Positions 2,418-61,528 are shown, counted from the first letter of the stretch. The stretch: DNA of 64,000 bases from Eubacteriales bacterium (GCA_045612105.1 JAZKYL010000147.1:884-64883); one strand, 5' to 3'. Notes: generated from the sequence alone by a model not told the origin. Made by a program: numbers and translations.

Positions 2418-2435
2418 AGAAAGGAACAATAGATA

Positions 2436-4339: not shown

Positions 4340-4345
4340 CACCGT

Positions 4346-4942: not shown

Positions 4943-5013
4943 TGCAAGCTGTTGCATTATATTACAAGATAAAAAACAGGGCGGGAGCCCTCAGAAAAAG
5001 AAAGGATGTAAAA

Positions 5014-15274: not shown

Positions 15275-15304
15275 CAAATTTTGATTTGTCGGAGAGATAA
15301 AATA

Positions 15305-15486
15305 ATGAAATGTTTCGCAAGCGAAACATTTCATGATGCTTCGCATCATGAAATGTGCTACGCACATGAAATGAAATTCGCCTTCATTCATATGCGCTTC
15401 TGCGCATTTCATGTTCCCAAGGAACATTTCATGGCGCAGCCATTTCATTTGCCGAAGGCAAATTTCATTGCGCACCTTTGGTGCGC
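15305..15486. repeat. tandem array of nine short, non-identical stem-loops with constant ATG...CAT stem bases and GAA/TTC linkers
   Basis: Hairpins at 15305-15334, 15327-15355, 15353-15367, 15371-15387, 15392-15407, 15411-15427, 15431-15443, 15447-15463 and 15470-15486. Spacing is about 18-23 nt. Confidence 0.8.
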
Positions 15487-17261: not shown

Positions 17262-17327
17262 TTTTCTTAAAATCTGCTTAATAATGTACTGATATAATTA
17301 ATTGAATAAAAGAGAGGAGGACGGGTC

Positions 17328-42897: not shown

Positions 42898-42937
42898 AAA
42901 AAAATACGGGAAACACCGAAATGCTTCCCGTATTTTT
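42898..42937 (-). terminator. rho-independent terminator ending the cohesin operon (bidirectional shape)
   Basis: ATACGGGAA (42904-42912) pairs with TTCCCGTAT (42925-42933), flanked by an A7 run and a T5 run. Confidence 0.75.
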
Positions 42938-42949
42938 CAATTGATCAGA

Positions 42950-44092
42950 TTAAATATCCTTCTTTTTCTTAATAAAGGTCAATGCTCCAAGTAATACTAC
43001 CGAAAACAGTGCGCCAAAGCTTATGGAAGATCCGCAACCCCAGGATTTATCGGGATTCTTGTCGCTTTCAACTTCCGCCTTGGTGCTCTCTTCACTTGCG
43101 GAAGTGTCCTTGGCACTATCGGTTACATCCCCGATCGTAAGGTCGGTTGTATTCTCAATTCTATCCTCAGTTGTATCCTCGGTTGTGTCCTCGGTTCTAA
43201 CATCGGTCTTATCATCGCTTGCCTCTGTCACTGTAACAGTTTCCTCAACCTCATTCTTAGGCAAAGTCGTTTCCTCATCCTTTGAAGAATCATTGTTGTT
43301 CGAGTTGTCACCTGAAGAAGGGTCGTTGTTCGAGTTGTCGCCCGAAGGAGGGTTATTGTTTTCCTCATCTGAAGTGGATTCCGCTTCAGTAATAATTCCG
43401 CCTTCGGTATCCTCCGCAGCTTGAGTCTCATCCGTAATAACGTCAGTTTCCTTATCGGGATCAGTAACGCCACAGTCGGTTTCTGTTTCTGCTTTGTTGG
43501 TTGTGTCCTCCTCTGTACCTATAGCGACACCTTGAGATTCGGTCTCACTCTCAACAGTTTCTTCGCTTACGAATATTTCATCGGTCTCTGTTGTTACCAC
43601 GTCAGCCGTAGTTTCATCGGTCACAGACTCAATAGGACCGCCTAAAACGTTGATCTTTATAGGCTCAATATTTACAGTAACGTCTTCCAGCTTAGCATTG
43701 CAACATTCATAAACTTTTACTATAATAACATTCTCACCAAATTTTGCGTTTTCACCAATTCTGAAGGTAATAGTAACTAACGTTCCCGTGGCGGTTGAAT
43801 CGCTTACTGAATCCCAAAGAATATTCAATCCGACGGTTATATCTTTCTTTATAGTACCGTTCTTTACGTCAACCACCTCAAAATCATCCGTTGAAGGCAC
43901 ATTGATCCTCATACCGGCGAATCCGGGATTGCTTTCAACATTAAGAACGACCTCTACCAACTCTCCTCTCTCGCCCTCTGCATCCGACACGGTGATCGTC
44001 ATAACGTCAGACGCAGAAACTCCGACACAGAGTAAAGAGAAAACCATAAGAACCGTTACGGTTATTAATAAGATTTTTTTAATTGCAGTCAT
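42950..44092 (-). CDS. cohesin-domain anchoring protein (signal peptide, cohesin, T/E/D-rich linker, C-terminal GCGSS-TM-KKKK tail)
   Basis: 380 aa. The cohesin-like module is coded at about 43637-44011 (...VVLNVESNPGFAGMRINV...). There is no LPXTG and no SLH. The hydrophobic C-terminus is followed by KKKKDI. Confidence 0.8.
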   Translation of the reverse strand: MTAIKKILLITVTVLMVFSLLCVGVSASDVMTITVSDAEGERGELVEVVLNVESNPGFAGMRINVPSTDDFEVVDVKNGTIKKDITVGLNILWDSVSDSTATGTLVTITFRIGENAKFGENVIIVKVYECCNAKLEDVTVNIEPIKINVLGGPIESVTDETTADVVTTETDEIFVSEETVESETESQGVAIGTEEDTTNKAETETDCGVTDPDKETDVITDETQAAEDTEGGIITEAESTSDEENNNPPSGDNSNNDPSSGDNSNNNDSSKDEETTLPKNEVEETVTVTEASDDKTDVRTEDTTEDTTEDRIENTTDLTIGDVTDSAKDTSASEESTKAEVESDKNPDKSWGCGSSISFGALFSVVLLGALTFIKKKKDI

Positions 44093-44114
44093 ATAATTAT
44101 ATCCTTGTAATTTT

Positions 44115-44804
44115 TTAATTTTGCTTGCCTAACACTACCGAAGAATGTCCCGTTTCGTAATCATAATTAGCAAGATACTGACGGATAAGTATAAGGTCTT
44201 TACCATCAACTGAACCATCATCGTTTGCGTCAGAACCGTAGAGCTCGTCGGAAGAGTTGCCATTAGTCAAATACTCTCTGAGCTTGATAACGTCAAGTGT
44301 ATCGACATTATCGTCACCGTTTACGTCACCGTACATAGGCGCAAGAGGCTCTCCGAGCACTTTGATCTTTATAGGCTCAATGCTTATACTAACGGGATCC
44401 AACTCATCATTAAAACACTCAATAACTCTGATATTAATGGTGTTCTCGCCTGCCTGCGCGCGATCGCCGATCCTAAATGTAACAGTAAGTAATGTTCCCG
44501 TAGCGGTTGAATCACTTGCAGAATCCCAAAGAATATTCTTTCCGCTGGTCATCGTTTTCATGACCGTGCCGTTCTTTACCTCCACGACCTCAAAATCCTC
44601 AGTCTGAGACACGTTAATCATCAAAGCGCAGAATCCGGGATTGCTTTCAACATTAAGAACGACCTCTACCAACTCTCCTCTTTCGCCTTCAGCAACAGAT
44701 GTAGTAACCGTCATAACGTCAGACGCAGAGACTCCGACACAGAGTGAGGAAAAAATCATAAGAACCGTTACGGTTATTAATAAGATTCTTTTTATTGCAT
44801 TCAT
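44115..44804 (-). CDS. adaptor scaffoldin: signal peptide, cohesin, dockerin
   Basis: 229 aa. The cohesin is coded at about 44346-44723. The dockerin (44118-44336) has the loops DVNGDDNVDTLD and DANDDGSVDGKD. Confidence 0.85.
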   Translation of the reverse strand: MNAIKRILLITVTVLMIFSSLCVGVSASDVMTVTTSVAEGERGELVEVVLNVESNPGFCALMINVSQTEDFEVVEVKNGTVMKTMTSGKNILWDSASDSTATGTLLTVTFRIGDRAQAGENTINIRVIECFNDELDPVSISIEPIKIKVLGEPLAPMYGDVNGDDNVDTLDVIKLREYLTNGNSSDELYGSDANDDGSVDGKDLILIRQYLANYDYETGHSSVVLGKQN

Positions 44805-44829
44805 ATGATGTATAAATCCTTATAACTTA

Positions 44830-47800
44830 TTAATATTGCTTGCCTAACACTACCGAAGAATGTCCCGTTTCGTAATCATAATTAGCAAGATACTGACGGA
44901 TAAGTATAAGGTCTCTGCTATCAACCACACCGTCATCGTTTGCATCAGAACCGTAGAGGTCGTCGGAAGCGTTGATGCCGACTAAATACTCTCTGAGCTT
45001 GATAATATCAAGGGTATCGATATCATTGTCACCGTCCACGTCACCGTACATAGACACATAGTTATCTATGTAATCCGTAGTGCTTGTATTAGTTCCGGTA
45101 GCAAGCGTGAAGCTCTCCATATCCCTATTGAATTTACAGATATCCTCAAGATCATCACTCATTCCGACATAAGCAATATCTATGTAGTCCTCGGTTGACA
45201 TAACAGAACCGAAAACGTCGAAACGAAGATACTTTGCCGCATATTCACCGTTTCCGTTTGCAGCAAAAGTAGAGCTCTTGCCGAACTTAGAAAGATCAAC
45301 CACCAAAAGGTGCCATTCACCGTCGCCTATAGCTACGTTATTTATTGCAAAATAATCGCTGGCTTGGGCACTTGAATTGACCGTGCTACAGTAAATATCA
45401 AATGAGGTTACCGTTTTTGTATTGGTAGAGGGCAATCTGTATTTTACAGCAACGTACTGTCCTGTAACAGAAGAAGAACTGCCTGCATAGGCATTGAAAT
45501 AAGCCTCGGAGGAAGTGCCGTCGCTATAAAGTCTTACGTAGCCTCCGTTTTCCATATAACGAGTACTTCTTATACCGTGCTTCTTAGTGGCGATCAACTG
45601 TATCTCACCGGGAGTCTGATATACGTTAATAGGATCCACGTCAGCTATGCCTTCCTCGGGCCAGCCTGCGAAATCATCGGAGGCAACGACCTTGAAGGTT
45701 CTGCTCTCTACGTCGGTCATATCAACCGCGAACGAATAAGAATAGGTTCCGTCATCGTCAAGATATACCATATATCCGTCGTAGCTGTGATGATAACCGT
45801 GAGTATCTGGGGTCTTATAGGAGCTTACGTCGTATTCTACCCACTTGCCGTCGATCTTTTCATAGATCTTGGGATTAGTGAGCTTGTTGAAGCCGTAAGT
45901 ATGGACAGCAACGTTATTGGTTCCGCCCGAAAGAGTAAACTCAACGCTCTCGCCGTTAGCCGACTTCACTCTGGGAACAAAGGGGCTATCTATCTTACTT
46001 CCCTCACCTACGGTTACGGTAAGAGGATCAAGACAAGTGTTAGCGCGAATATTCTGCATATTGGTGTCGTCAGCGGAATCTGTCCAACCCCAAGGAGATA
46101 TGACCATATTCAGGTTAATGGTGTCACCGGGATTGAGAGTTACAGTTCCCAGATCCATAGAAAGGCTATAAACGTAATTCTTGCCGACCATAACGAAATT
46201 ATCGTCACGCTCAACGCCACCAATAACTATCTCGGAGTCGTAAAGAACGAAACCGAGGTTTGCGTTGTTCACAGACCAGCTTGCGCTCTCGGAATAGAGA
46301 TCGTAAAGCGCAACGTAAGGACAATTCTTACCGAGAACAAGCGTTTCTGCGGTATCAGTGCCGTTTGTAGCCTTGTGAACTACACCCTGCTCTCCCAAAT
46401 ATCCGAGTTTCTGATAATATCCCGCATAACCCTCAAAGGAGTAGAACGAGAAATCATTTGCGAAATCATTGATAGTAACCGCACCAAGTATCTCATATTC
46501 GATCTCATAATAAGCGCGAAGCTCATCGGTCTGAGGCATTTCAATGTGCTTATACGTAACTTTGATCTTACCGTCATCGGAAATGTAGGACATATCCGCA
46601 TCGACGTAGACGGGACCCGAAGAATTTATAATGTTTGAGATATTCTCCGTACCGTTCTTGTTACCTGCGGCATCGGTGTACTGTAAGAAATACTGATATC
46701 CCGCATGAGTGTGCTGAGGCTGATTGCTGTATTCATCACCCTCAAGCTCAAACCAATAATCCATCGACTGAGAACGGAAGTCGGGCAGAGTCCAAAGATC
46801 GCGAGCACCGAACCAAGGAGCAATACAGCTGGTCTCGGTAGTACCAACGGAAAGATGATAATAAGGGTTAAAATACTGAATAGATGATAACTGCTTAAGA
46901 GGAAATCTTCCCCAATTCTGATAGAGATTGAGCACCGTGAAGGTAAGGCTCTCGTTAGCGCCAAGGCTGAGCGGGAACACGGTCTCACTGTAAACCATAT
47001 CGCCTGCATCGTAGATAGGCTCCTCATTCTCTCCTCCGAAGTTCTTGGAAACCTCCATAGGAATAGGAAGCAGCATATTGTTTTCATCGAGAAGCGCAGC
47101 ACCCTCAAGGCTTCCGCCCTCATAAAAGCCTGAGTAAACATAAATGTTTCTGTCGCTGCTGTCACCTGTAAAGGTAGCCGTTGCGCTGTAATGCTTGTTC
47201 CACTCGGCAAAGAAAGGAGTATTAAAGCCTGTACCGCCGATAGAAAGCTTATATGCTCCGCGAAGCGCATCGTATGTATATGATGTATCACAAGTAATAG
47301 TGCTCAGGGGAGATCTTTCATTCTCCGCCTCGGCAATAAACGCATCAAGCGTATCGTTTTCGTCGGTATAAATACGCTGACCCATACGGTAGTCGTTACT
47401 TGTATTGGTAACTTTTGCCTCATTTATATTTGTTGTATTAGGATCATCAACAGGATAAGCAGAAATAGCGCCTCCCGTGGGAGTAGAAGCCTGAGTTATA
47501 GTATAAATACCGTTAGCAAGTGTTACAGTCAGCTTACCGCTGTTCTCGTGAACAGGCAGAATATATCCGAAAACACCTACACCCGTCACGTGGAAACCAA
47601 CGTACTCTGCAGTGCTCCAATCAACCCCTTCAAGAGACGAGTGAGTTCCGTTTGCGTCCTTAACCACCAATGCGTCAACTTTGCTCTGCGCAAGCTCGGT
47701 GATCATTCCCACCTCGGCAATTCCCGAAACGTCCTCGGTTGCAACGAAGTGAAGCTCCTGATGAAGCTTGTCGGAATAGGTGTGGAAGGTTCTGTCAAGT

Positions 47801-48741
47801 CTGAGCGCAGGGATCGAGCCCTCTACGTTAACTATGCTCACGTCCTTGAGAGAAACCGTCGCGCCCACTGTCTTACCCAAATCAAATCTGATTCCGCATA
47901 CGTCGCCAGTGTAATTCGAAACGCCGTTAATAAATACGGTATAGGTATGATACTCGCCGTCGTTAACGAGGTCAAAGCTAACACTCTGCGCTTCGCTGTG
48001 TCCCGTGGCACCGTTTGCAAGAATATATATCTTTCCCGTGGTAGCATTTGCATCGGTAATTTTCGCGGTAAATCTTATAGCGTTGTATGAGGTGGCAGCA
48101 TATTTCGTGCAGCTATGGTAACCCATTGTCGTCTTGTGCGGTACATACACGTACGGATTAGTTGTGGTTGCGGTATAGGAAAGCTCGCCGTTCGAAGTGG
48201 TTTTGTTTCCAACACCGTTTGTGCCCGTAAATTTGGAAATGTCGATCGCAGTCTCATTGGTCGTCGGCAGATCGCCGCCAAAACTTTGACCGAGCATATG
48301 CACGTCATAATAGTAAAAACCGTGCTTATATATATTTACCCTTGCCGTATTAGTTGACTTAGAGGTATAATATACTCCCCCGTCGTTCATTTTAACGTAA
48401 GCGTCCATAGTACCCGCAAGGTATTCTTTGCCGCTTGCGCTCTTCAAGGAAGATACCTGATTGTTCTTCGCAATAGACAAATAATAGTCCAGCGACATAT
48501 TTTTATTCTTCACCGTAAATCCGTCACGGCTTTCGTCGATATACTTCGCGGTAATGCCGTTTGCCATAGCATTGGCATATTCTATCGACTCAGAAAAACC
48601 GTTTCCGACCGAGAAAGTTGTTCCCGTTGCACCATCGCCTGTAACCGCATCCTCGGCAAATACAACAAAGGTATTCGCGGAGAGAAGCAAACATATCGCA
48701 AGGATCATAGAAAACACTCTCAACATCTTGTTTCCATTCAT
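44830..48741 (-). CDS. giant secreted dockerin protein, paralogue 1 (unknown core family)
   Basis: 1303 aa counted from ATG 48741 (GAAGGAG RBS; the track starts at TTG 48747). Signal peptide, conserved core shared with the next two genes, and a C-terminal dockerin (DVDGDNDIDTLD, DANDDGVVDSRD). Confidence 0.9.
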   Translation of the reverse strand: MNGNKMLRVFSMILAICLLLSANTFVVFAEDAVTGDGATGTTFSVGNGFSESIEYANAMANGITAKYIDESRDGFTVKNKNMSLDYYLSIAKNNQVSSLKSASGKEYLAGTMDAYVKMNDGGVYYTSKSTNTARVNIYKHGFYYYDVHMLGQSFGGDLPTTNETAIDISKFTGTNGVGNKTTSNGELSYTATTTNPYVYVPHKTTMGYHSCTKYAATSYNAIRFTAKITDANATTGKIYILANGATGHSEAQSVSFDLVNDGEYHTYTVFINGVSNYTGDVCGIRFDLGKTVGATVSLKDVSIVNVEGSIPALRLDRTFHTYSDKLHQELHFVATEDVSGIAEVGMITELAQSKVDALVVKDANGTHSSLEGVDWSTAEYVGFHVTGVGVFGYILPVHENSGKLTVTLANGIYTITQASTPTGGAISAYPVDDPNTTNINEAKVTNTSNDYRMGQRIYTDENDTLDAFIAEAENERSPLSTITCDTSYTYDALRGAYKLSIGGTGFNTPFFAEWNKHYSATATFTGDSSDRNIYVYSGFYEGGSLEGAALLDENNMLLPIPMEVSKNFGGENEEPIYDAGDMVYSETVFPLSLGANESLTFTVLNLYQNWGRFPLKQLSSIQYFNPYYHLSVGTTETSCIAPWFGARDLWTLPDFRSQSMDYWFELEGDEYSNQPQHTHAGYQYFLQYTDAAGNKNGTENISNIINSSGPVYVDADMSYISDDGKIKVTYKHIEMPQTDELRAYYEIEYEILGAVTINDFANDFSFYSFEGYAGYYQKLGYLGEQGVVHKATNGTDTAETLVLGKNCPYVALYDLYSESASWSVNNANLGFVLYDSEIVIGGVERDDNFVMVGKNYVYSLSMDLGTVTLNPGDTINLNMVISPWGWTDSADDTNMQNIRANTCLDPLTVTVGEGSKIDSPFVPRVKSANGESVEFTLSGGTNNVAVHTYGFNKLTNPKIYEKIDGKWVEYDVSSYKTPDTHGYHHSYDGYMVYLDDDGTYSYSFAVDMTDVESRTFKVVASDDFAGWPEEGIADVDPINVYQTPGEIQLIATKKHGIRSTRYMENGGYVRLYSDGTSSEAYFNAYAGSSSSVTGQYVAVKYRLPSTNTKTVTSFDIYCSTVNSSAQASDYFAINNVAIGDGEWHLLVVDLSKFGKSSTFAANGNGEYAAKYLRFDVFGSVMSTEDYIDIAYVGMSDDLEDICKFNRDMESFTLATGTNTSTTDYIDNYVSMYGDVDGDNDIDTLDIIKLREYLVGINASDDLYGSDANDDGVVDSRDLILIRQYLANYDYETGHSSVVLGKQY

Positions 48742-48783
48742 TTTCAAAACTCCTTCATGTCAAATTTTTTGGACATCATATAT

Positions 48784-48812
48784 ATAATAACATAACTTCT
48801 TCCATTTGTCAA
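48784..48812 (-). promoter_or_regulatory. sigma-A promoter of paralogue 1 (TTGACA-17-TATTAT)
   Basis: Minus strand: TTGACA at 48812-48807 and TATTAT at 48789-48784. Confidence 0.5.
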
Positions 48813-48931
48813 CAACATATGATTTTATTAATTACATATATTGTAATATTTTAAAACCAAATTTATCATTTACAAATTATCCCCCACGCAACGAAGGTCA
48901 CGTGGGGGAGCAAAAAAACACTCAAAAATTA

Positions 48932-51900
48932 TTAATCTGTGCTATCCGTGATCTGGGGACCCAGAACAACAGTTGATTCACCGGTATCGTAGTTGTAATT
49001 CGCGAGATACTGACGAAGAAGGATCAGATCAAGCGTATTAATGCTTCCGTCACAGTTGACATCTGCACCTGCGCTTACTTTTACAGTTGACTCGCCTGTC
49101 TCATAATTGAAATTAGCGATGTATTCTCTCAAGGTAACGACGTCCTTGGTGGTTATCTTCGTGCTTCCGTCATCAACTACCTTACCGTAGGCATAGGATC
49201 GGAAAGTCACAGTACCTGCTGTAACCGCAGTATTAACTCCCTGACCCGAGATAGAGTTTGCGTCAACTACCTTGACCGAGAAATCGTACTGTGAATCCTC
49301 TTCAAGGTCGAAATTAGCCTTAAATGCAAGATTAATAAGCGTTCCGTCCTCTGAAGAATCATAAGTATTGCTCCATATGATATGTGAGCCGTTTACCGAA
49401 AGTCCTTCAAGCATGTCTCCGTTCACATATCCCATAAAAGTGAATTTGGTATTGTCGTATACGGGCATAATGTCGAGATAGGAAATACCCGTGTTATTTT
49501 GAATGTTTACAGGAATGATGAAAAGATCGTCGGGATTGATAACGGGACTTGCAACGCTGATGTTTACGATCTCGTTTTCTTCAGGCGCGGTTATTTGAGA
49601 ATAGAGTCTCGTACCCGCCGTTATGTCAGCCGTACTATACAGCATCCATGCGTCCTTAAAGTTCGTGTCGTAAGCGAAAATCTCGGAGATGCTGTCAGTC
49701 ATACCGACGTATGCCACGTCCATATAGGTGCCCGTTGGAATCTCAACACCATTGAGGAAGTCGATTCTCATATATCTTGTAAGACAGGTTCCGTCTGCTT
49801 CCGGCTTAAAGGTTTTAGACGGGAACGATGCAGCATCAAATATTGCCAGATGCCAAGCATCGTCAAAAAACACTTTATGATTGTCTATAACATAGCTATC
49901 AGAACTGGTTGCATTTGCATTTTCCGTACTGGTATACATCTCTATATACGCGCTATCCTGAACTGTCTGATCTGTTGTAGAGGGCAGTCTGTACTTGATA
50001 ACCACGTATTTACCTGTGTTTACAGGGTCTGTAGCAGCATAAAGATTTGTATAAAACTCTTTTTGACCGGTAGCTTTCGGGGCAAAACGAACGAAAGTTA
50101 CTCCGCTTTCGTCGGTTTGAGCGTCGGAAGCGACAGCATTGCTGTTTACCATAATGTTCCTAGCGCGAAGGTCATCTCCCGCAAAAAGCACGTTCATATT
50201 CTGGAGAGACACGTTGCTGTCAACACTAAGCTCCCAGCCGTCGAATGCCGTATCAGCGACGACCTTGAATTTCCTTGCCTGATCGCCATTTAGAGTAATT
50301 ACAAACGAGTAGGAATACGTTCCGTCTTCACTATTGTAGTAAACGTTGTAGCCGTCGTAGCTGTGTCCGTCACCGTTGACGTCGGGAGTTGTAGCCGAGC
50401 ATACGACGTAGTCGACCCACTTCGATTCCATTTCTGACCACTCCTGGATCTTGGGGTCGGTAAGCATTGTAAAGCCGTCAACACGGATGGTCTGATTACT
50501 TTCATCACCCGAAACGGTAAAGATTGCCTCGGTGCCGTTTGTGGTCTTGACTCTGGGGAGATATACGCTTTCGACGACCTCCGCATTTTCAACGGGAGTT
50601 ATCGTAACAGGTCTGAGAGCCATATCTGCTCGAACGTCACGAACGTTCTTATCCTGAATGTCGTCGTATGTTCCCTCCATCTCCTGAGAACCCCAAGGAA
50701 GAAGAATTGCGTTGATGGTAATGCTATCGCCCGCCTTGAGTGTTACCGCTTCGAGGTTAAGAGACAACGAAAGCTTGCCGCCAAGATCGTTGAGAACGAA
50801 GCGAGGGGTTTCAGTTGCATCCTTGATAGAGATATCGGAACCGCATACGATGAGGCCTAAGTTGGCATAACCGCCACGGTTGTGATCACTGGTAGCACCG
50901 TCCATATCAAAGAAGGAGAAATAAGGATAATAGCTACCAAGCGTATACTGCTCAGATGTTCCCTTTGCTTTTGCAGTAGCTACATAACACTTATTGTCTG
51001 TACCAAGATAACCAACACGCTGATAGAGACCCGTGGGATCCATCGATTCTACAGAATAGAATTGGAAATCTCTGCTGAAGTCTGTGAAGCTGACGTCTCC
51101 AAGTATCTCGTACTTAATTTGATAATAGGTTCTGTTCTCGTCGGTCTGAGGCATCTCCATATGAGTGTAGGTTACTCTGATATTGCCGTCATCGGAGATA
51201 TTCTGCATTTCTATCTCGGCGTAGGTAGGACCGTGAGAGGTTATGACATTGTTGTAGTTTTCACTTCCGTTAAAATTGCCTTCTGAATCGGTATACATCA
51301 GCCACTTGTGGTCACCGCAGGTAGGATGCTGAGGCTGATCGCTCCAGAACGGCGCAGACATCGGACGGAAGTCGGGCAGCGTTGAGTAGGTTCTGTTCGC
51401 AGCCTTTGTAGAATACATAGGAGTTATACAGGTAGACTCCGTAACACCCGTGGACAAATGATAGTAAGGAGTTGAGAACTGGATCCACGAGATCTGCTTC
51501 AAGGGATATTTTCCCCAGTTCTGATAAGCATTTACTACGGTATATTCAGCGCTTGAATTCGCCTTAACCTCCATCGGGAAGATAGATTCGCCGTAGGATG
51601 TGTCGTCAATGTTGAAGAGTCTTGGATTCTCCTCCGAGAAGTTCTTACCGACCTGAACAGGCACGGGGATCAACATTTCGTTTGCGTCAAGCAATACGGC
51701 ACTTTCAAGACAGCCACCGGTGGTTGCGGTCATCACCCATATCTTGCGATCTTTTTCGTCGCCCGTTACGGTAAAGTTTACGTGGAATTTCTTATTGATC
51801 GCTGAAAGGGCAGGCTCGCTGAAGCCGTGAAAGCCATCTATATTAAATTTATAGATGCCGCGGATAGCGTCGTATCCGACAAAACTGCCGTCGCAATCTT

Positions 51901-53341
51901 CGCTTACTTCGATATTCTCCGAAGTAAGAGGCTCTCTCTCGATTTCTGCCTCTGCAATGAAGTCAGTGAGGGTATCATTCGTATCGGTATAAATTCTTTG
52001 ACCTATGTAGAAGTCGTTTCCGTTAGGGATCTCCATGCCTTCATACGAAGGAATGAGAGTGCCGCCTGCAGGCTTGTTGATCTGTGTTATGACGTAATAA
52101 TCGGTGCCATCTATAGTCTTTTCAGTCACGGTAAGCTCGCCGCCCGAGCCGTCGCAGGGCATAATATATCCGAATACACCGACGCCCGTAATGCAAAATC
52201 CGGCGTACTCATCCTTCTCGAAAACGTATTCGCTAACGTCATTCTTGGGGATCTTCACCTCGACACCGAACTCTGTGATTTTCTCTACGGTCTTGGTGGT
52301 TGCAAACTGAGTAAAGCTATGCATCTTGTCGGTATAAACGAGGAATGAACGGGCAACCTGAAGTCCCTCGATCGAGTCCCCCATATCGACCTGAACTACC
52401 GCCAACTCGCTGACGGTAAAGGTTTCGTCTATTCCACCCGAAAAGTCAAGGCGAAGTCTGCCTATCGTTCCGGAGTAATCACTACCGTTAAACATAGGCA
52501 CCATATATTCACGCGATTGACCGTCGCCTATAACGCTGAACGAGACACTTTTATATTGGGTAAAGCCGGTTGCGCCGCTTACCTCATAAAAGAAGGTCGC
52601 GCCCGTAATTCCCTCAGAGACGGCCATTGTTATACTGATGTAGTTATATGTGCCTGCGGGATACGCGATGCTTTCGTATTTATAGCCTCTAAGGCTATCC
52701 ATCCAACTGGGATCGGACTCTCCGAACACTATATAAGGGTCCAATGTATTAAGGTCACCGGTATTGGTGATCGTTCCCGAAACGCTTCCGGGTGACGACT
52801 TTGAGCCACCCGAGGTTACAGTGACATCTAAACTGTTTTGAACCCAGAAGTTCTTTACGTCATGGGTTTCCCCGTCCTCCTTCGTTGTGGGAGAACCGGC
52901 AAGGAAGTCTTGACCCTCAAATCTCGCGTCGTAATAGTAGTATCCGAAACGGTGAAGGTTAGCAGTAGCGACAGAAGAAGAATTGGAGGCGTAAATCCTA
53001 TCTTTACCATCGATCGTGACAAAAGCGTCCATCGTGTTTTCGATGTAGGTTTTTGTGCCATCTTTAGTCGTTAAAGAAGCTACCTGCTTATTGCCTTCCG
53101 CATTAAGCTCATAGGTTAGGTTCATCTGCTGATTTTTAACGATGAACTGTTCTCTGTTTTCATCGGCAAAGTATGCCTGAACTCCGTTTGCCAACGAATC
53201 TGCATTTTCAATAATCACGCTCTCGTCGATAGGAGTGATCTCGCCCGCAGCAACCGCGGGAAGCACACCTATACAGAACGACGACAGAAGCATTGCAATC
53301 GATAACGTGACAGTCAGAATTCTTGTTGAAAATTTCTTCAT
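48932..53341 (-). CDS. giant secreted protein, paralogue 2 (unknown core, cohesin, dockerin)
   Basis: 1469 aa counted from ATG 53341 (GGAAGGTG RBS; the track ORF starts upstream at 53437). Signal peptide MKKFSTRILTVTLSIAMLLSSFCIGVLPAVAA. C-terminal cohesin and dockerin. Confidence 0.9.
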   Translation of the reverse strand: MKKFSTRILTVTLSIAMLLSSFCIGVLPAVAAGEITPIDESVIIENADSLANGVQAYFADENREQFIVKNQQMNLTYELNAEGNKQVASLTTKDGTKTYIENTMDAFVTIDGKDRIYASNSSSVATANLHRFGYYYYDARFEGQDFLAGSPTTKEDGETHDVKNFWVQNSLDVTVTSGGSKSSPGSVSGTITNTGDLNTLDPYIVFGESDPSWMDSLRGYKYESIAYPAGTYNYISITMAVSEGITGATFFYEVSGATGFTQYKSVSFSVIGDGQSREYMVPMFNGSDYSGTIGRLRLDFSGGIDETFTVSELAVVQVDMGDSIEGLQVARSFLVYTDKMHSFTQFATTKTVEKITEFGVEVKIPKNDVSEYVFEKDEYAGFCITGVGVFGYIMPCDGSGGELTVTEKTIDGTDYYVITQINKPAGGTLIPSYEGMEIPNGNDFYIGQRIYTDTNDTLTDFIAEAEIEREPLTSENIEVSEDCDGSFVGYDAIRGIYKFNIDGFHGFSEPALSAINKKFHVNFTVTGDEKDRKIWVMTATTGGCLESAVLLDANEMLIPVPVQVGKNFSEENPRLFNIDDTSYGESIFPMEVKANSSAEYTVVNAYQNWGKYPLKQISWIQFSTPYYHLSTGVTESTCITPMYSTKAANRTYSTLPDFRPMSAPFWSDQPQHPTCGDHKWLMYTDSEGNFNGSENYNNVITSHGPTYAEIEMQNISDDGNIRVTYTHMEMPQTDENRTYYQIKYEILGDVSFTDFSRDFQFYSVESMDPTGLYQRVGYLGTDNKCYVATAKAKGTSEQYTLGSYYPYFSFFDMDGATSDHNRGGYANLGLIVCGSDISIKDATETPRFVLNDLGGKLSLSLNLEAVTLKAGDSITINAILLPWGSQEMEGTYDDIQDKNVRDVRADMALRPVTITPVENAEVVESVYLPRVKTTNGTEAIFTVSGDESNQTIRVDGFTMLTDPKIQEWSEMESKWVDYVVCSATTPDVNGDGHSYDGYNVYYNSEDGTYSYSFVITLNGDQARKFKVVADTAFDGWELSVDSNVSLQNMNVLFAGDDLRARNIMVNSNAVASDAQTDESGVTFVRFAPKATGQKEFYTNLYAATDPVNTGKYVVIKYRLPSTTDQTVQDSAYIEMYTSTENANATSSDSYVIDNHKVFFDDAWHLAIFDAASFPSKTFKPEADGTCLTRYMRIDFLNGVEIPTGTYMDVAYVGMTDSISEIFAYDTNFKDAWMLYSTADITAGTRLYSQITAPEENEIVNISVASPVINPDDLFIIPVNIQNNTGISYLDIMPVYDNTKFTFMGYVNGDMLEGLSVNGSHIIWSNTYDSSEDGTLINLAFKANFDLEEDSQYDFSVKVVDANSISGQGVNTAVTAGTVTFRSYAYGKVVDDGSTKITTKDVVTLREYIANFNYETGESTVKVSAGADVNCDGSINTLDLILLRQYLANYNYDTGESTVVLGPQITDSTD
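49193..49570 (-). other. cohesin module inside paralogue 2
   Basis: IVNISVASPVINPDDLFIIPVNIQNNTGISYLDIMPVYDNTKFTF...TVTF, followed by the dockerin at about 48956-49192. Confidence 0.7.
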
Positions 53342-53449
53342 ATCGCACCTTCCAGAAATAAAATTTTCCCCAAGAGCAATATTAAATTGCCCTCGGGGAA
53401 GGTCGTGGTCTGCATTTGTGCATACACATTTATGCATACCGTTTATTAA

Positions 53450-53478
53450 ATTATAACATAGTCACCAAATCTTGTCAA
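53450..53478 (-). promoter_or_regulatory. sigma-A promoter of paralogue 2 (TTGACA-17-TATAAT)
   Basis: Minus strand: TTGACA at 53478-53473 and TATAAT at 53455-53450. Confidence 0.6.
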
Positions 53479-53540
53479 TGATAAAAATCAGACAAAAATA
53501 TGTTTATTCTGTAATTTGAGCGATCTTGATGAATGCCCGT

Positions 53541-56500
53541 TTACTTTGCTCCGAGCTGTACGCCGGGGGTATTGCTGTCGTAGTCGTAATTTGCCAGATA
53601 CTGACGAAGAAGAATGATATCCTTCATATTCACCTCTCCGTCGCCATTGGCATCAGCTCCCGAAGCGAGAACAAATGCGGGAGTATCGGTCTCGGTATTA
53701 TAATTCGCCAAATATTCTCTGAGCTTGCTTACGTCCAAAACAGAGATTCCCAAGTCTCCGTTAGCGTTACCGTATTTGGATCCTATCCACACGGTCTCTC
53801 CGGTCGCCTTTTTGATTATCTTATTTCCATTTGCGCTATAAACGGTATTATTTTCATCTATCACTACCGTAACACCGGTATAATTACCGGAGAAAGCGTT
53901 TTGGTTAGAAATATTCGTAACAGATGCGGGGATCTTGATGCTCTTGACGTTTTCGGTAACAATAGCACCGCTTTCAATTCCGGTTACAGGCAGACCCGCA
54001 TATTCTTCGGGAATCACCAGCGAATTGATCGCGTGTCCGTCAAATCCTACGACAGCAAGGCTTTCGCCGTCGTCGTTTAGAGCATATTCAAGGCCGAATG
54101 TTGCGGGTTCCTCAACAGTAACGCGGAAGGTTCTTGCAGTTGTATCGGTAATTGTAGTTACGAAGGAATAGTTATACTTACCGTTTTCATAAGTAACTGC
54201 ATAACCGTCGTAATCGTGATACGAGCCAGTTGCATCGGGAGTATCCTTGGAGGAAACAACGTATTCTACCCAATTTCCATTCACAAGCTCCTCGATCTTG
54301 GGAACACCCAAGAATTTAAAGCCCTTTGCGAGAACAGTAATGTTAACGTCATCGGCAGCAGTGTCAAATCCGCCGTTGATGGTAAACTGAGCCGAGGATC
54401 CGTTATTTGTAACCACGGTGGGAAGGAAAGCCGAAGCCTCAACGGTACAATCAGCTACCGCAGTTGCCTTATAACCGTTTGCGGCAATCAGTTCTTTTCT
54501 GATTCGTCTTACGTTATTGTCGTTATTAACGTGATATACCTTGCTACCGTCAGCCTGCTCTTTAACGTCAACACTATAATCGGCAGGATCGAATTCAACC
54601 ACGTTGGAATCCTTCCAACCGCCGCCCCAAGGCATAATGATGGCGTTGATCTTGAAGCTATCGCCCTTCTTAAGTGTAACAGCGCCGTCAATATCGAGAG
54701 TAAGGCTTAGAGTCTGATAAGCTTCCTTTACGGCAAAATTCGCGCTGCTCTTCTTTCCTCCTATGACTATCTCCGAGGTATCAACAATAAACGAGAGGTT
54801 TCCGTAGGAAGTAGCGTTCGACATATAATAAACATCGAAATACGGCACATGTGTTCCGAGAGTGTGATATCTCGTCTCCTTTTCCTTGCCGTCGGGCCAG
54901 ATCATTTCTGTGACCTTGCAGTTATTGGTGTTGTCAAGGTAGCCGAGATATTTATAATAGGAATAACCGAAGAATGAATACAGGGAGAAATCTTCTCTGA
55001 AATTATTGATCGTCAGATCCTCTTCAACGGTATAGACTATCTCATAATAGCCTCTGTTCTCATCGGTCTGAGGCATTTCCATATGGTTGATCTCTACCTT
55101 GATCTTACCGTCGTCGGTAACATAATTTGTTGTTACGTCAGCATAGGTGGGTCCATAAGAGCCGATAGCTACGTCGGTGTATTCGGTTCCGATCATCTTA
55201 CCCGTAGAATCTTCATAGCGAAGGAAAGCGTGGTGTCCCGCGTTATAGTGCTGGGGCTGGTTGTTCCAGAAGGGCTGAGACATAGCTCTGTGGTCGGGGA
55301 GCATCTCAAAGTTTCTTCCTCTTGTGGAATAATGAGAGATACAGTTGGTCTCGGTAACACCGGTGGAAAGATGATAATAAGGAACGTAATATCCGATAGA
55401 GGATATCTGCTTGAGGGGATATTTACCCCAATTCTGATAGAGATTGAGGAGAGTGAAGTATTTGTCGTCGTCACCGCCAACGGTTATGGGGAATATTGTG
55501 TCACCGTAAGTAGTGTCGCCGCAATTATAAATCGGCTCTTCCCCTTCAGAGAAGTTCTTACATACCTCAAGAGGTACGGGGAGCATCATATCGTTTACGT
55601 CAAGGAGCGCGGCGCACTCAAGAGCGCCGCTGGAGGTATGGGTCATTACGTAAATATTTCTGTCAGTACCGTCACCCTCTATTCCAAAAGAAACGTTATA
55701 GTGCTTATTGGGAGAATCCTCGTATGCTATGCCAAAGTTCGCTACACCAGAAAGAGTAAAGTAATAGGCACCCTTGATAGGATCGTAGCCCTTGAACTTT
55801 GAACGGGGGGTTGCATCGGTATCGATCTTGATGTTTTCCGCTGTAAGAGGATTTCTTTCGATCTCAGCTTCCTTAAGGAATGCATCGAAGGTATGATTCT
55901 TATCGGTATATATTCGCTGTCCCATTCTGAAATCGTTTGTAGCATCATAAACAGGTGCGAGGATCGTATCGTTGCGAGGAAATACCTCCTGAGTGATAGT
56001 ATAAACGTTGTTCGAAAGAGTAACCTTCATGCTTCCGCTCTTTCCGTCGTAAGGAAGGATGTATCCGAAGATACCAACGTTCTTAATATCAAATCCGATA
56101 TACTCGGCACTTGCCCAATCAACACCGTTAAGAGAAGTGTGAGTTCCGTTCTTATCCTTTACGATAAGCTTGTCAACTGTGCTTGCGTTGATCTCGGTGA
56201 TAACACCGAGAGAATTGATATTGTTAACATCCTTATAGGCAACAACGTGTATCTCCTGATGGAGCTTATCGGAATAGGTATGCATGGTACGGTCGAGGGT
56301 CAAAGGAACCTTATCGTAGGTTATGTTCAGAACCTTGATGTCCTTGATCTGGACGTCTGTTCCCTCCATGCCGTCGAAATCAAACCTCAAGCCGGTGACG
56401 TTACCTGTGTAACCCTTCTCAGCCCATCTCTCGGTGGAGAAAGTGTAGGTATGCCACTCGCCGTCGTTCTTGATATTGTTTCTGATCTTTCCCTTGTCTG

Positions 56501-58298
56501 TTGTGAATGAGGCTCCGTCAATGCTGAACAGAATGTCCATTGATGAAGACGTCTCGCTCTTGATTGTGATCTGAATAGCATTATAGGATTCTGCGGAATA
56601 AGACAGACTTGTTGATCCAACCCAGGTATCAAGGGGGTTAGCTATGGTAAAGCTCAATACACCGTTAGATACCTTAGGCTTTGTGGAATGGTGGGTGGAG
56701 TATTTTGTAAACGTGCTTATATCAAGAGTTTTCGTGGAAGAGACCGTTGCGCTGTTTACAAAATCGTTATCCAGCATATGAACGTCATAGTAATAATAGC
56801 CTAATCTGAAGATATTAGGTCTCGGCTCGGCGGTATAATTACTTGCGTAATAGGTCTTACCTGAAGTAGTTTTCGCGAAGACCTTCATAGTGTTCTGAAT
56901 ATAAGCCGCGCCCGAAGGATCGGTTATAGAAGCAACGGTGGAGTTTCCGCCGGTGGTAAGATTATAGTTAACGCGAACGTTTTGATTCTCGATAGTGTAC
57001 TTATTACGGTTACCATCCTTATTGTAATATGCATCAACACCGTTCACAAGACCGTTTGCATGTGCAATCACATCTTGATTGTTGTTACTGTATTCATATT
57101 TGGGAAATCCGCCTTGATCTTCAAGGCTTCCAACGTAAACGTCCTCAACAAAATCAAGCACACAAAGTGTGGATGTATTCTTCACGGGAACTGCCGCAAA
57201 GGTCACATCAACCCACTGTCCTTCATAATCGGAAAGATCAGCGGCTATTCCGTTACAATTTTTTCCGCTTCCCGCAGCGCACTGATAAGAAGCCTTGACC
57301 TTGGTGCTTGCCGCATCCGCAAAGGTTATACCAAGTTTCTGCTGAGCCGCAGTGATAACGCTATCGCCGGCATTAAAGATCGAGGATCTTCCGTAAAGCG
57401 TGGCATCATTCCAAGTCTTTCCGTCGTCAACCGACCACACGTACTTACTGATACCACCATCTACTACGCTCCAGCCGGAAAATACGAGACAGTTATCTTC
57501 AAAGGTAGTACCGCCATAAAGTATTCTGTCAACACCGGTTTTCGAGCTTCCGCCGCGAGCACTTAATGTTGCTGCTCCGTTCGCACCCATACCGTTGATC
57601 ATATCAAGAGCAGAACAATAAGCGAGATTCGACTTGGTATAAGAGGACGAGGGATCTATATATTCCTCTTTATTTTGATAATTCTCTGCGTCATATGCCT
57701 GAGCCTCAGCCGCTGAATTAAAAAAACCGATATACTCAATATCAATGAAGGCATCCTCGGGAATTGTTCCCGCGTTCATAAAATCAAAACGGAGATAATT
57801 TGCTGAACTTCCATTATAATCTGCTATTTTGGATGCAAGATCAACCGTTACAAGATTCCACTTACCGTTAGCGGTTATAGCAAAATGCTTTGAACTGCTT
57901 GCGGCAACAGGCTTCTTGTTAACCGAATCCGAAAGGATTTCCATAGAAATGCCTGCTGTCTGTGTCCTGTACTTAATAGCAATGACAGGAGCTACAGCAT
58001 GAGCCGTATAAAAAAGATGAAAATACGCTTCCGCTGTGCCCGGACCTCCCGCAGAAAGAAGACGAACAAATTCGGTACCGTTTTTCTTGTAATGAGTTAC
58101 TTCGTCGTATCCCATACAACCATATTTGTCACCCCAGATACCGGGCTCGGCTAGGTCATATATTTCCTGTGCGGTAAATATAAGATCGGTGGTGTCGTAC
58201 TCCAATGCAACCGCGGGCATCGCGGCAAAAGGCATAGAGAGCACCGACATTACAAGCGCCAGCATAAGCGAGACGCCTCTAAACAGTTTCTTTTTCAT
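53541..58298 (-). CDS. giant secreted dockerin protein, paralogue 3 (extra N-terminal modules, LRR segment)
   Basis: 1585 aa counted from ATG 58298 (AGGAGG RBS; the track ORF starts at 58379). Signal peptide MKKKLFRGVSLMLALVMSVLSMPFAAMPAVA. Shared core. BspA-like LRR near the C-terminus. Dockerin with NANGDLGISVLD and DANGDGEVNMKD. Confidence 0.9.
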   Translation of the reverse strand: MKKKLFRGVSLMLALVMSVLSMPFAAMPAVALEYDTTDLIFTAQEIYDLAEPGIWGDKYGCMGYDEVTHYKKNGTEFVRLLSAGGPGTAEAYFHLFYTAHAVAPVIAIKYRTQTAGISMEILSDSVNKKPVAASSSKHFAITANGKWNLVTVDLASKIADYNGSSANYLRFDFMNAGTIPEDAFIDIEYIGFFNSAAEAQAYDAENYQNKEEYIDPSSSYTKSNLAYCSALDMINGMGANGAATLSARGGSSKTGVDRILYGGTTFEDNCLVFSGWSVVDGGISKYVWSVDDGKTWNDATLYGRSSIFNAGDSVITAAQQKLGITFADAASTKVKASYQCAAGSGKNCNGIAADLSDYEGQWVDVTFAAVPVKNTSTLCVLDFVEDVYVGSLEDQGGFPKYEYSNNNQDVIAHANGLVNGVDAYYNKDGNRNKYTIENQNVRVNYNLTTGGNSTVASITDPSGAAYIQNTMKVFAKTTSGKTYYASNYTAEPRPNIFRLGYYYYDVHMLDNDFVNSATVSSTKTLDISTFTKYSTHHSTKPKVSNGVLSFTIANPLDTWVGSTSLSYSAESYNAIQITIKSETSSSMDILFSIDGASFTTDKGKIRNNIKNDGEWHTYTFSTERWAEKGYTGNVTGLRFDFDGMEGTDVQIKDIKVLNITYDKVPLTLDRTMHTYSDKLHQEIHVVAYKDVNNINSLGVITEINASTVDKLIVKDKNGTHTSLNGVDWASAEYIGFDIKNVGIFGYILPYDGKSGSMKVTLSNNVYTITQEVFPRNDTILAPVYDATNDFRMGQRIYTDKNHTFDAFLKEAEIERNPLTAENIKIDTDATPRSKFKGYDPIKGAYYFTLSGVANFGIAYEDSPNKHYNVSFGIEGDGTDRNIYVMTHTSSGALECAALLDVNDMMLPVPLEVCKNFSEGEEPIYNCGDTTYGDTIFPITVGGDDDKYFTLLNLYQNWGKYPLKQISSIGYYVPYYHLSTGVTETNCISHYSTRGRNFEMLPDHRAMSQPFWNNQPQHYNAGHHAFLRYEDSTGKMIGTEYTDVAIGSYGPTYADVTTNYVTDDGKIKVEINHMEMPQTDENRGYYEIVYTVEEDLTINNFREDFSLYSFFGYSYYKYLGYLDNTNNCKVTEMIWPDGKEKETRYHTLGTHVPYFDVYYMSNATSYGNLSFIVDTSEIVIGGKKSSANFAVKEAYQTLSLTLDIDGAVTLKKGDSFKINAIIMPWGGGWKDSNVVEFDPADYSVDVKEQADGSKVYHVNNDNNVRRIRKELIAANGYKATAVADCTVEASAFLPTVVTNNGSSAQFTINGGFDTAADDVNITVLAKGFKFLGVPKIEELVNGNWVEYVVSSKDTPDATGSYHDYDGYAVTYENGKYNYSFVTTITDTTARTFRVTVEEPATFGLEYALNDDGESLAVVGFDGHAINSLVIPEEYAGLPVTGIESGAIVTENVKSIKIPASVTNISNQNAFSGNYTGVTVVIDENNTVYSANGNKIIKKATGETVWIGSKYGNANGDLGISVLDVSKLREYLANYNTETDTPAFVLASGADANGDGEVNMKDIILLRQYLANYDYDSNTPGVQLGAK

Positions 58299-58358
58299 AA
58301 TGAAACCTCCTACTGATGAGTTGTGCAAATCATACAAGTCAATTAAACACTTTGAAAC

Positions 58359-58387
58359 ATAATAACATATTTTCTCCAAAATGTCAA
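58359..58387 (-). promoter_or_regulatory. sigma-A promoter of paralogue 3 (TTGACA-17-TATTAT)
   Basis: Minus strand: TTGACA at 58387-58382 and TATTAT at 58364-58359. Confidence 0.5.
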
Positions 58388-60453: not shown

Positions 60454-61289
60454 TGATCGCCCTCCTTCTCTTTCAACTGTTTTCTCCAGGAAACAGGCGA
60501 TGTTCCGTAATAATTCTTAAAGCACCTTGAAAAATACTCGTTGTCACAAAATCCGCACTCCTCCGCAACCTCACGTATCGACAGCTCGCTGTTAATAAGC
60601 AGTCTCGCCGCCTTCTCCATGCGCTTTTTCATTACGTATTCCATTATAGTAATGTCGTATTCCTTCTTAAAATGCTCGGTGAGAGTAACGGTACTGTAAT
60701 GAAGCTTAAAAGAAAGATCTGAAAGGGTTATTTTTTTCGATAGATTGTTTTTAATGTAAGACTTTATAAGCTGACCGATAGTCATATCGGCATCCGCCAG
60801 AAGATTATTAGTCTCAATGTACTCGGAAATAAGCGGAAGCAGAGCCGCGAACGCATCAAGCTTCTCTTTTGAATATTTCGGCAGATCCTGAATACTCTTT
60901 TCAAGTTGACTTTTGTTAAGAGTGGGCGACACATCCAAAGCAAGCTTCATAAGCTCCTTTTCGCTCTCGACTCCGTCCTCGATACCCATTCCCACAAAAA
61001 CGTATGCGACGATCTCATCATTTTTATGTATAGGCATCAAAGCTTCATAAATACCGAAAGGACACTTGTACACGTGCAGACCGTTCTTCTCGTATGCCCT
61101 CTCAAGCTCACAATCATCCGATTCAATGCAAATATCCATGCATTTTTGTGATTTGTGTATATTTGAACAGTACAAAGCGCCCGAATAGCGGCGGGCAATT
61201 ATTTTATTTTTGCTGTTGACTATGGCAACGTCCATACCCGATATTTCATAAAAGCTCTGCAAAATATCTTCGATCTTAAGCGAACCCAT
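60450..61289 (-). CDS. AraC family transcriptional regulator with N-terminal PocR-like sensor domain
   Basis: About 279 aa counted from ATG 61289 (GAAGGAGG RBS; the track starts at TTG 61307). Cys-rich PocR-like N-terminal region. C-terminal AraC HTH (...IREVAEECGFCDNEYFSRCFKNYYGTSP). Confidence 0.85.
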   Translation of the reverse strand: MGSLKIEDILQSFYEISGMDVAIVNSKNKIIARRYSGALYCSNIHKSQKCMDICIESDDCELERAYEKNGLHVYKCPFGIYEALMPIHKNDEIVAYVFVGMGIEDGVESEKELMKLALDVSPTLNKSQLEKSIQDLPKYSKEKLDAFAALLPLISEYIETNNLLADADMTIGQLIKSYIKNNLSKKITLSDLSFKLHYSTVTLTEHFKKEYDITIMEYVMKKRMEKAARLLINSELSIREVAEECGFCDNEYFSRCFKNYYGTSPVSWRKQLKEKEGDQ

Positions 61290-61435
61290 AATTCTGCCCT
61301 CCTTCAAAAATCCGTTTTTCCAAATTGAATTACTCTACTGCTTCATAATAGCATAAGACCCGTAAAATTGCAAGCCTTTTTTGCTAAAAAGCCATAAAAT
61401 TTATCGATTTTACGGTTTTACTTATTGATTTGTAG

Positions 61436-61464: not shown

Positions 61465-61528
61465 GTACTCGTAAGGCAGAAAAGCCTGCCCAAATTAAAA
61501 ATATTTATTACACAGGAGGATGTGTATC

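Follow-up and report, generated by a model that had tools for sequence, protein, structure and literature searches.

A five-gene cohesin-dockerin locus from an uncultured gut Clostridia bacterium, with giant cargo proteins of an unannotated family and an adaptor gene created by tandem duplication

Assemblies built from cohesins and dockerins are best understood for cellulose and starch. Here, a version that is compact, genetically linked and furnished with an unannotated main cargo is described from a 64,000-nucleotide stretch of DNA of an Eubacteriales bacterium (GCA_045612105.1, JAZKYL010000147.1:884-64883). This stretch, called the window below, represents most of a 69-kb contig and is the part of the genome that was in view. 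Five consecutive genes on the minus strand, between 42950 and 58298, encode three giant dockerin proteins (P1, P2 and P3), a cohesin-dockerin adaptor and a cohesin-bearing anchor. A preliminary description of the DNA had proposed that these genes carry the modules for cohesin-dockerin assembly, and the open reading frames (ORFs) and Pfam agree with it. The host is an uncultured gut Clostridia bacterium related to the Ruminococcaceae/Oscillospiraceae; the methionine synthase of the window shares no more than 79% identity with any protein that carries a name, and the few such proteins all come from metagenome-assembled genomes (MAGs) labelled Clostridia, Ruminococcaceae or Eubacteriales bacterium.

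Layout of the five genes and their modules

The anchor gene (42950-44092, 380 amino acids), the adaptor gene (44115-44804, 229 amino acids) and P1 (44830-48747, 1305 amino acids; the database start at 48741 gives 1303) were called as ORFs on the minus strand. The longest minus-strand ORFs of the other two giants span 48932-53437 (P2) and 53541-58379 (P3). Because consensus promoters fall inside the 5' ends of these longest ORFs, the most likely starts are 53341 for P2 (48932-53341, about 1469 amino acids from MKKFSTR) and 58298 for P3 (53541-58298, about 1585 amino acids from MKKKLF), each of which opens a typical signal peptide.

A scan of the minus strand for promoters placed three of its four best matches directly upstream of P3, P2 and P1. 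The individual promoter that had been predicted for each giant gene is present in all three cases, with an extended TG: TTGACA-17-TATTAT before P1 (48784-48812, 11 of 12 positions matching) and P3 (58359-58387, 11 of 12), and TTGACA-17-TATAAT before P2 (53450-53478, 12 of 12). The gaps of 25 and 22 nt in the P1-adaptor-anchor run were confirmed from the coordinates, as was the intrinsic terminator that closes it on the minus strand (42898-42937), a 9-bp G+C-rich stem followed by seven T residues. Read directly from 42937 to 42898, the terminator consists of ACGGGAAGC-loop-GTTTCCCGT and then T7; the automatic scan had passed over it. The gene beyond has its own perfect promoter (42845-42817). 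The tight spacing together with the single terminator makes co-transcription plausible, and a single transcript probably covers P1, the adaptor and the anchor. Two more hairpins lie on the minus strand. One is terminator-like and sits 3' of P2 (48880-48909, 13 pairs of which 8 are G-C), and the other, of 15 bp, lies between the P2 promoter and the P2 start (53366-53400), where it may be a terminator of P3 overlapping the P2 leader or an attenuator-like element in that leader. Nothing inside the locus, the latter hairpin included, was matched in an Rfam scan.

All six dockerins of the window exceed the Pfam gathering cut-off for Dockerin_1 (PF00404, type I; 22.9 bits), with scores from 28.3 to 44.7 bits. 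Four of them are C-terminal and belong to the locus: those of the adaptor (44118-44336, 38.0 bits), P1 (44833-45051, 30.5 bits), P2 (48935-49180, 30.8 bits) and P3 (53544-53765, 28.3 bits). The other two are N-terminal and are found in a leucine-rich repeat (LRR) protein (7572-7751, residues 34-92, 31.6 bits) and a carbohydrate esterase (about 62830-63012, residues 39-95, 44.7 bits) encoded elsewhere in the window. In the alignment the dockerins take the form of two tandem segments, each a Ca loop (D-x-[DN]-x-[DN]-G-x-x-x-x-x-D) and a helix. P1, the adaptor and the esterase have two canonical loops, conservative substitutions occur in the LRR protein and P3, and the first loop of P2 is degenerate (KVVDDGSTKITTKD). 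The motif LLRQY[LF]AN[YL]NYDTG stands behind the first repeat in the two N-terminal dockerins and behind the second in the four C-terminal ones; from this pattern the repeat order looks swapped according to the end of the protein that the dockerin occupies.

The three cohesin-like modules, called cohesins here, are located in the anchor (about 43634-44011), in the adaptor (44346-44723) and inside P2 (49193-49570), so that every cohesin-bearing protein in the window has a single cohesin. With the gathering cut-off for Pfam Cohesin (PF00963) at 24.1 bits, the anchor module scored 26.4 bits (E 9e-6; 25.2 bits in a second scan), the adaptor module 20.2-22.4 bits (E 1.5e-4) and the P2 module 23.6 bits (E 6.7e-5, model positions 2-138 of 139). 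The Pfam check proposed at the outset was therefore passed by the six dockerins and the anchor cohesin, while the adaptor and P2 cohesins fell slightly under the cut-off. When hidden Markov models (HMMs) derived from the modules of the window were searched against its six-frame translation, exactly six dockerins and three cohesins were returned, none further, at the places where they had been described. Of seven homologues of the anchor-type module, six match Pfam Cohesin when taken individually (best E 1.2e-7). A word-indexed homologue search with the adaptor cohesin found two proteins only, and a scan of JGI metagenomes with the cohesin alignment found no relative. The P2 cohesin is 21% identical to the anchor type, and a different specificity is therefore likely.

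The anchor, the adaptor and the 715-bp duplication

A P1 orthologue followed directly by a cohesin anchor with a similar tail was found in three other lineages. In the first of these (L001, L002 and L003) P1 is 87% identical, and the order is P3 (probably split in two genes), P2, P1 and an anchor of 322 amino acids. In the second (L085) P1 is 83% identical and the order is esterase, oxidoreductase, regulator, P3, P1 and an anchor of 246 amino acids, and in the third (L086) P1 is 64% identical and precedes an anchor of 210 amino acids. The P3 orthologue is a gene of 1587 amino acids in L085 and, judging by size and position, probably a pair of 1094 and 468 amino acids in L001. As regards conservation of the five-gene block as a unit, P1 followed by the anchor is kept in all three lineages, whereas the adaptor is missing from all of these loci (L001-L003, L085 and L086).

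The anchor of the window is composed of a signal peptide (44012-44092), the cohesin, an acidic linker of about 190 residues rich in Thr, Glu and Asp, and a tail (42953-43045) made up of SWGCGSS, a hydrophobic helix and KKKKDI. The preliminary description had called this tail membrane-anchor-like, and its hydrophobic helix and basic end are indeed kept in the orthologues. All four orthologous anchors (the window, L001 with its tail at 14800-14902, L085 and L086) carry a Gly-Cys motif at the C-terminus (WGCGSS, KGCGLS or GGCKAV). In each, GCG or GCK is followed by [IV]S, about 20 hydrophobic residues and a basic cluster (KKKKD, KKRR or RRKDD). No LPXTG is present in any of the four tails. The LPXTG_anchor model gave 13.1 bits with a cut-off of 15.9 and matched only the membrane-helix portion, NCBIfam gave no match for the anchor, and curated CTERM models gave only sub-threshold matches to several unrelated models.

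Sorting signals of the Cys type at the C-terminus, such as the MYXO-, JDVT-, Synerg- and CGP-CTERM types, have been described (bioRxiv 10.1101/2023.06.07.544157). These signals have the same three parts as the anchor tail, namely an invariant Cys within a short motif, then a membrane helix, then a cluster of basic residues; they have been described in other phyla only, and a text search of that preprint found Firmicutes and Clostridia nowhere mentioned. Unlike these signals, the anchor tail reaches no curated CTERM model. The anchor would sit in or on the membrane or wall by means of this tail and present its one cohesin at the far end of the linker.

The adaptor consists of a signal peptide, the cohesin and the dockerin, and the DNA around it holds two tandem units of 715 bp on the minus strand (44344-45058 and 43629-44343, together 43629-45058). 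Each unit runs from the P1 dockerin and its stop codon through the spacer between the genes, which contains the ribosome-binding site, to the signal peptide and cohesin of the anchor. At the junction between the units (...LGEPLAP|MYGDVNGD...) a cohesin is joined to a dockerin, and the adaptor gene was thereby created; the adaptor is the product of this tandem duplication. The gene is seen in the window only. Identity between the two units is 89-100% in the 3' end of the dockerin, the spacer and the signal peptide and 57-75% in the distal cohesin. The L001 anchor cohesin is 80% identical to the adaptor cohesin of the window and 63% identical to the anchor cohesin of the window. The anchor cohesin has 27 lineage-specific residue changes versus 7 in the adaptor cohesin (Tajima chi-square 11.8), and its synonymous divergence is likewise doubled. 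Later recombination or gene conversion fits this uneven divergence as well as faster evolution does. The more diverged cohesin is the copy on the membrane-anchored protein.

The borderline cohesin scores and the presence of the adaptor in one lineage only might suggest that the cohesin-like modules are not cohesins for the local dockerins and that the adaptor arose recently as a side product of the duplication and may lack a function. We regard this as highly improbable. The reading frame of the adaptor is intact and has kept its own ribosome-binding site, and the ratio of nonsynonymous to synonymous substitution rates (dN/dS) is 0.28-0.45 in both halves, which indicates that both copies are under purifying selection; the match of six of the seven homologues to Pfam Cohesin also argues against it. 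In its ancestral state the anchor cohesin presumably had the dockerin of the neighbouring P1 as its partner, in which case the adaptor now unites both partners in a single chain. Since the adaptor combines a cohesin of this ancestral type with a P1-type dockerin, it could insert a second tier, in the order anchor, adaptor and cargo, or chain to itself. What is new here is the origin of an adaptor by a 715-bp tandem duplication that is missing from three related loci, and also the type of anchor tail, with a conserved Gly-Cys motif, membrane helix and basic end in place of LPXTG.

The giant paralogues and their protein family

P1, P2 and P3 are 42-44% identical to each other across a core of about 1000 residues, and all three are secreted and carry a type-I-like dockerin at the C-terminus. 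P1 has a signal peptide, the nearly all-beta core, a module resembling a carbohydrate-binding module (CBM) and the dockerin. In P2 the core and CBM-like module are followed by the internal cohesin and the dockerin. P3 has two extra CBM-like modules at the N-terminus, then the core, a short stretch that by eye resembles BspA-type LRRs (no LRR match was found there in Pfam) and the dockerin. Apart from Dockerin_1 nothing in the giants is matched in Pfam, and NCBIfam gave no match. A profile of 41 core sequences had no match among PDB sequences, and searches of PDB sequences with the family profiles returned dockerins or noise only. Judged by these searches, the core belongs to no known family.

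The family is large and sharply bounded. A profile of the central domain searched against 1.84 billion representatives matched 526 clusters (50% identity) at E<1e-3 and 263 at E<1e-30. In GTDB genomes 452 matching stretches were found, often several paralogues per genome, and all of the hosts are uncultured Clostridia, Eubacteriales or Oscillospiraceae. The sources of the family are mostly MAGs, for the greater part recovered from goat, sheep, deer, yak and horse, either from hindgut or from faeces. Among 26 diverse members a dockerin is present in five and a cohesin in one, and the core-cohesin-dockerin order of P2 recurs in the L001 orthologue and in a distant member (L063). The accessory modules in other members (LRR_5, PKD, fn3, CBM_4_9, Cu_amine_oxidN1 and Flg_new) form a set typical of secreted, surface-associated proteins and carbohydrate-active enzymes (CAZymes). 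A known catalytic domain never accompanies the core among the members scanned.

AlphaFold2 models of P1 residues 32-1225 (predicted local distance difference test, pLDDT, 85.8; predicted template modelling score, pTM, 0.74) and of the central 601 residues (pLDDT 84.5, pTM 0.84) are nearly all beta. In a Foldseek search of the PDB the best match of the central domain was OpgG/OpgD of glycoside hydrolase (GH) family 186, with E 1e-6 and probability 1.0 at a template modelling (TM) score of only 0.27-0.36 and a root-mean-square deviation of about 20 Å over 400-460 columns. Further weak matches were the N-terminal supersandwich of GH36, GH38, GH2-type beta-galactosidases and polysaccharide lyase family 26 (PL26). 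The full model also matched GH101 and GH2-type beta-galactosidases, and its flanking modules matched CBM4/22/29. The supersandwich fold is usually non-catalytic. In GH186 the beta-supersandwich itself is catalytic and is followed by an Ig-like domain (PMC10514313). OpgG and OpgD are the nearest structural neighbours of the central domain. The giants differ from GH186 in having no similarity at the sequence or profile level, with TM about 0.3, and in being far larger, extracellular and encoded by Gram-positive hosts. Membership of GH186 was rejected, as hhalign of the central domain with E. coli OpgG gave a probability of 0.07% and there was no Pfam match. A phage origin was also rejected, the BFVD matches being only generic tail-fibre-like beta-sandwich chains with TM about 0.1.

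About 15 polar residues of the central domain are invariant across the 26 most diverse members, whose identity to the top sequence of the alignment is 29-38%. Among these residues, numbered as in P1, are R458, E477, R533, K568, H631, E638, D656, R658, E736, D741, E742 and R744. We take their invariance as the mark of a probable active site. The core would most likely be a hydrolase or lyase of an undescribed family, with its active site in a supersandwich of the galactose-mutarotase-like kind and with help from the CBM-like modules. We give a glycan-active enzyme an even chance or somewhat better and consider a non-catalytic binder clearly less probable. With beta-sandwich domains that are CAZyme-like in the models and CBM-like modules beside them, the giants probably act on glycans without having been recognised as doing so, and are less likely to be cargo unrelated to carbohydrates.

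The alternative is that the giants are non-catalytic adhesins or glycan-binding surface proteins, in essence strings of beta-sandwich and CBM-like modules, displayed together with the LRR protein for attachment to particles, mucus or cells. The models are all beta and multi-domain, their PDB matches are mostly accessory domains and CBMs, and the BFVD chains resemble phage tail fibres. The failure to detect a catalytic family, the usually non-catalytic nature of the supersandwich and the co-occurrence of LRR_5 and PKD modules in family members also fit attachment. In contrast, some 15 invariant charged or polar residues clustered in one domain are more typical of an active site, the supersandwich of GH186 is catalytic (PMC10514313), and family members recur beside glycoside hydrolase and esterase genes. 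On balance, we think attachment as the sole function unlikely.

The genes next to family members elsewhere are concerned with carbohydrates and give ambiguous hints of the substrate. At no fewer than nine loci the closest relatives without a dockerin (52-56% identical to P1) have a co-oriented GH25 gene about 30 nt upstream of them; the surroundings are a conserved set of housekeeping genes, and GH123 is close by. A co-oriented gene of about 1036 amino acids, GH106-like by BLAST clustering with two Pfam-annotated GH106 genes, stands directly upstream of a giant subfamily of about 1230 amino acids at nine loci (L036, L039, L041, L042, L044, L046, L047, L052 and L059); phmmer found no PDB match for it. 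At one locus GH127, carbohydrate esterase family 4 (CE4), a GDSL esterase and a dockerin protein are encoded upstream of a member. These neighbours point either to plant glycans bearing rhamnose, arabinose and acetyl groups or to bacterial cell-wall glycans as a possible substrate. If the target were glycans of the bacterial cell envelope rather than dietary polysaccharide, the giants might serve remodelling of the cell's own wall, scavenging, or attack on other bacteria; the adjacent GH25 muramidase gene, with GH123 nearby, and the GH106-like (rhamnosidase family) gene speak for this. The other contexts, with GH127, CE4 and GDSL and SASA esterases, look plant-directed, and in the window no giant adjoins a GH25 gene. 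A cell-envelope target seems improbable to us.

Surroundings, known systems and proposed working of the locus

Upstream of P3 on the minus strand lies a gene for a 625-residue protein without a signal peptide (58576-60453), which matched nothing in Pfam or NCBIfam and no PDB sequence significantly; L085 has no gene called at this position. It overlaps by 4 nt the gene for a regulator with a PocR sensor and AraC-type domain (60450-61307, minus), which adjoins the giant genes in L085 as well and is the candidate regulator of the locus. On the plus strand follow a Gfo/Idh/MocA oxidoreductase (61520-62551), also syntenic with the locus in L085, and the dockerin esterase (62716-64000, running past the window end), a SASA-type (PF03629) carbohydrate esterase in whose place L085 has a gene of 688 amino acids. 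Carbohydrate esterases are known parts of ruminococcal cohesin-dockerin systems. A second SASA-type esterase, of 688 amino acids and with no dockerin match in Pfam, is encoded at 21206-23272 (plus). The view that the cargo is no recognisable enzyme set is upheld for the giants, which match no cellulase, xylanase or amylase family in Pfam, NCBIfam or the PDB profile search, and it fails for the esterase.

The LRR protein is of the BspA type, with 2589 amino acids (7473-15242, plus; LRR_5 1044 bits). It contains many Cys-rich repeats (ALGH...CT..G.TEG.HC..C), and the same repeats make up the N-terminal half of GH25 proteins upstream of dockerin-less giants in other MAGs (for example L081, 8340-9974). 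An earlier reading in which these GH25 proteins clustered with the LRR giant through shared LRRs was withdrawn when BLAST traced the clustering to the Cys-rich repeats. Directly upstream of the LRR gene, genes for an HTH/small-terminase-like protein, a terminase large subunit, a P22-like portal and a capsid (206-6294, plus) are a prophage or prophage remnant. Two copies of the Rfam Gut-1 RNA motif lie just 3' of the LRR gene (15303-15377, plus, and 15401-15470, minus; 50.1 and 57.6 bits with a cut-off of 50), and beyond these a membrane protein of 559 amino acids without known family and a Mbeg1-like/class-3 lipase of 360 amino acids are encoded (15582-18410, plus).

A close parallel to the locus is the amylosome of Ruminococcus bromii, whose 26 dockerin genes are scattered and in which amylases, peptidases and LRR proteins share a single anchor cohesin (PMC4611034). 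Its Amy4 (Sca1), of 1356 amino acids, has a cohesin followed by a C-terminal dockerin and was shown experimentally to multimerise, and Sca2 is a monovalent cohesin protein with a cell-surface signal at the C-terminus (PMC4611034). P2, with core, cohesin and dockerin, resembles Amy4, and the anchor, with one cohesin and a tail, resembles Sca2; an LRR-dockerin partner and a gut host of the Ruminococcaceae/Oscillospiraceae group are further likenesses. The differences are that the cargo of the locus is an unannotated all-beta family with no GH13 found, that its anchor has no sortase motif and instead ends in the Gly-Cys motif, helix and basic tail, and that its cargo, adaptor and anchor are encoded as one block. 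LRR-dockerin proteins are known parts of ruminococcal systems (PMC4611034), and the cargo is not exotic in kind.

In the Ruminococcus flavefaciens cellulosome many of the dockerin proteins carry LRRs or have unknown function. That system comprises a ScaE anchor, adaptor scaffoldins and more than 220 dockerin proteins (PMC2930009, PMC5429695). The locus shares with it an adaptor with cohesin and dockerin and a monovalent anchor, which is bound to the cell there and predicted to be so here. It differs in that the window contains neither a scaffoldin with several cohesins nor cargo of the cellulase or hemicellulase type, and in its very divergent cohesins, from which PDB cohesins are reached only at E 0.003-0.05. 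A strictly defined cellulosome has a scaffoldin with several cohesins and a cellulose-binding CBM, and dockerin cellulases of GH5, GH9 or GH48; these elements were absent from the window proteins scanned, and no GH5, GH9, GH48 or GH13 gene was found among the same proteins. The locus is of the cellulosome or amylosome style by architecture and neither by cargo. Cohesin and dockerin HMM matches are present and the giants fall into no well-characterised CAZy family, two of the points on which the preliminary description had invited contradiction.

The reading that we prefer, and to which we assign a probability of about 0.6, is that the locus encodes a small system for display at the cell surface, of the same kind as the ruminococcal cohesin-dockerin systems, and that its giant cargo is probably glycan-active. 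From the modules present, the anchor cohesin would hold at the surface the dockerins of P1 and P3, and possibly also those of P2, the LRR protein and the esterase. By analogy with Amy4, P2 may use its cohesin to carry a second dockerin protein or to form multimers.

Several points weigh against this reading. Two of the three cohesins (adaptor and P2) score slightly below the Pfam gathering score, and although cohesins were among the top matches of a profile search of PDB sequences, they were marginal. Dockerins are missing from most members of the family, so surface display is not intrinsic to it. On the side of the enzyme, the OpgG/OpgD fold match is weak, GH186 membership was rejected, the fold is one that is usually non-catalytic, and no catalytic residues could be assigned. 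Finally, as the genome is seen over 64 kb, the true partners of the cohesins may lie elsewhere. The same view of 64 kb allows the locus to be a fragment of a larger conventional system of the cellulosome or amylosome type, in which the giants are accessory and the local cohesins serve many dockerin enzymes. Two more dockerin proteins are in fact encoded in the window, 35 kb and 4 kb away, and R. bromii and R. flavefaciens have their dockerin genes dispersed, with a single anchor cohesin that binds cargo of many types (PMC4611034). Conversely, the order of P1 and anchor is kept in four lineages, which argues for a specific pairing of cargo and anchor, and no GH5, GH9, GH48 or GH13 gene is found in the window. 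A fragment of this sort is a real possibility that falls short of an even chance; it is compatible with the small display system, and both can be true.

A stronger combination of ideas can be put forward only tentatively, and we doubt that all of it will hold: that the core founds a new CAZyme family with its catalytic site in the supersandwich, widespread and present in many copies in uncultured Clostridia of the herbivore gut, and also that the anchor uses a Cys-type signal new to Clostridia in place of a sortase signal. If that combination is true, the locus would be a minimal assembly complex for a glycan, seen while it acquires a tier of adaptor by tandem duplication. The 715-bp duplication itself offers a one-step origin for an adaptor scaffoldin, with donor and product side by side and the pre-duplication state in related genomes. 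For a large and conserved family that is unannotated, the locus provides a concrete handle in the form of three paralogues with their own promoters, a nearby regulator, a predicted surface location and a set of invariant residues. Should the core prove to be an enzyme, a CAZy family would be founded on it, and assembly complexes of the cohesin-dockerin kind would gain a new class of substrate.

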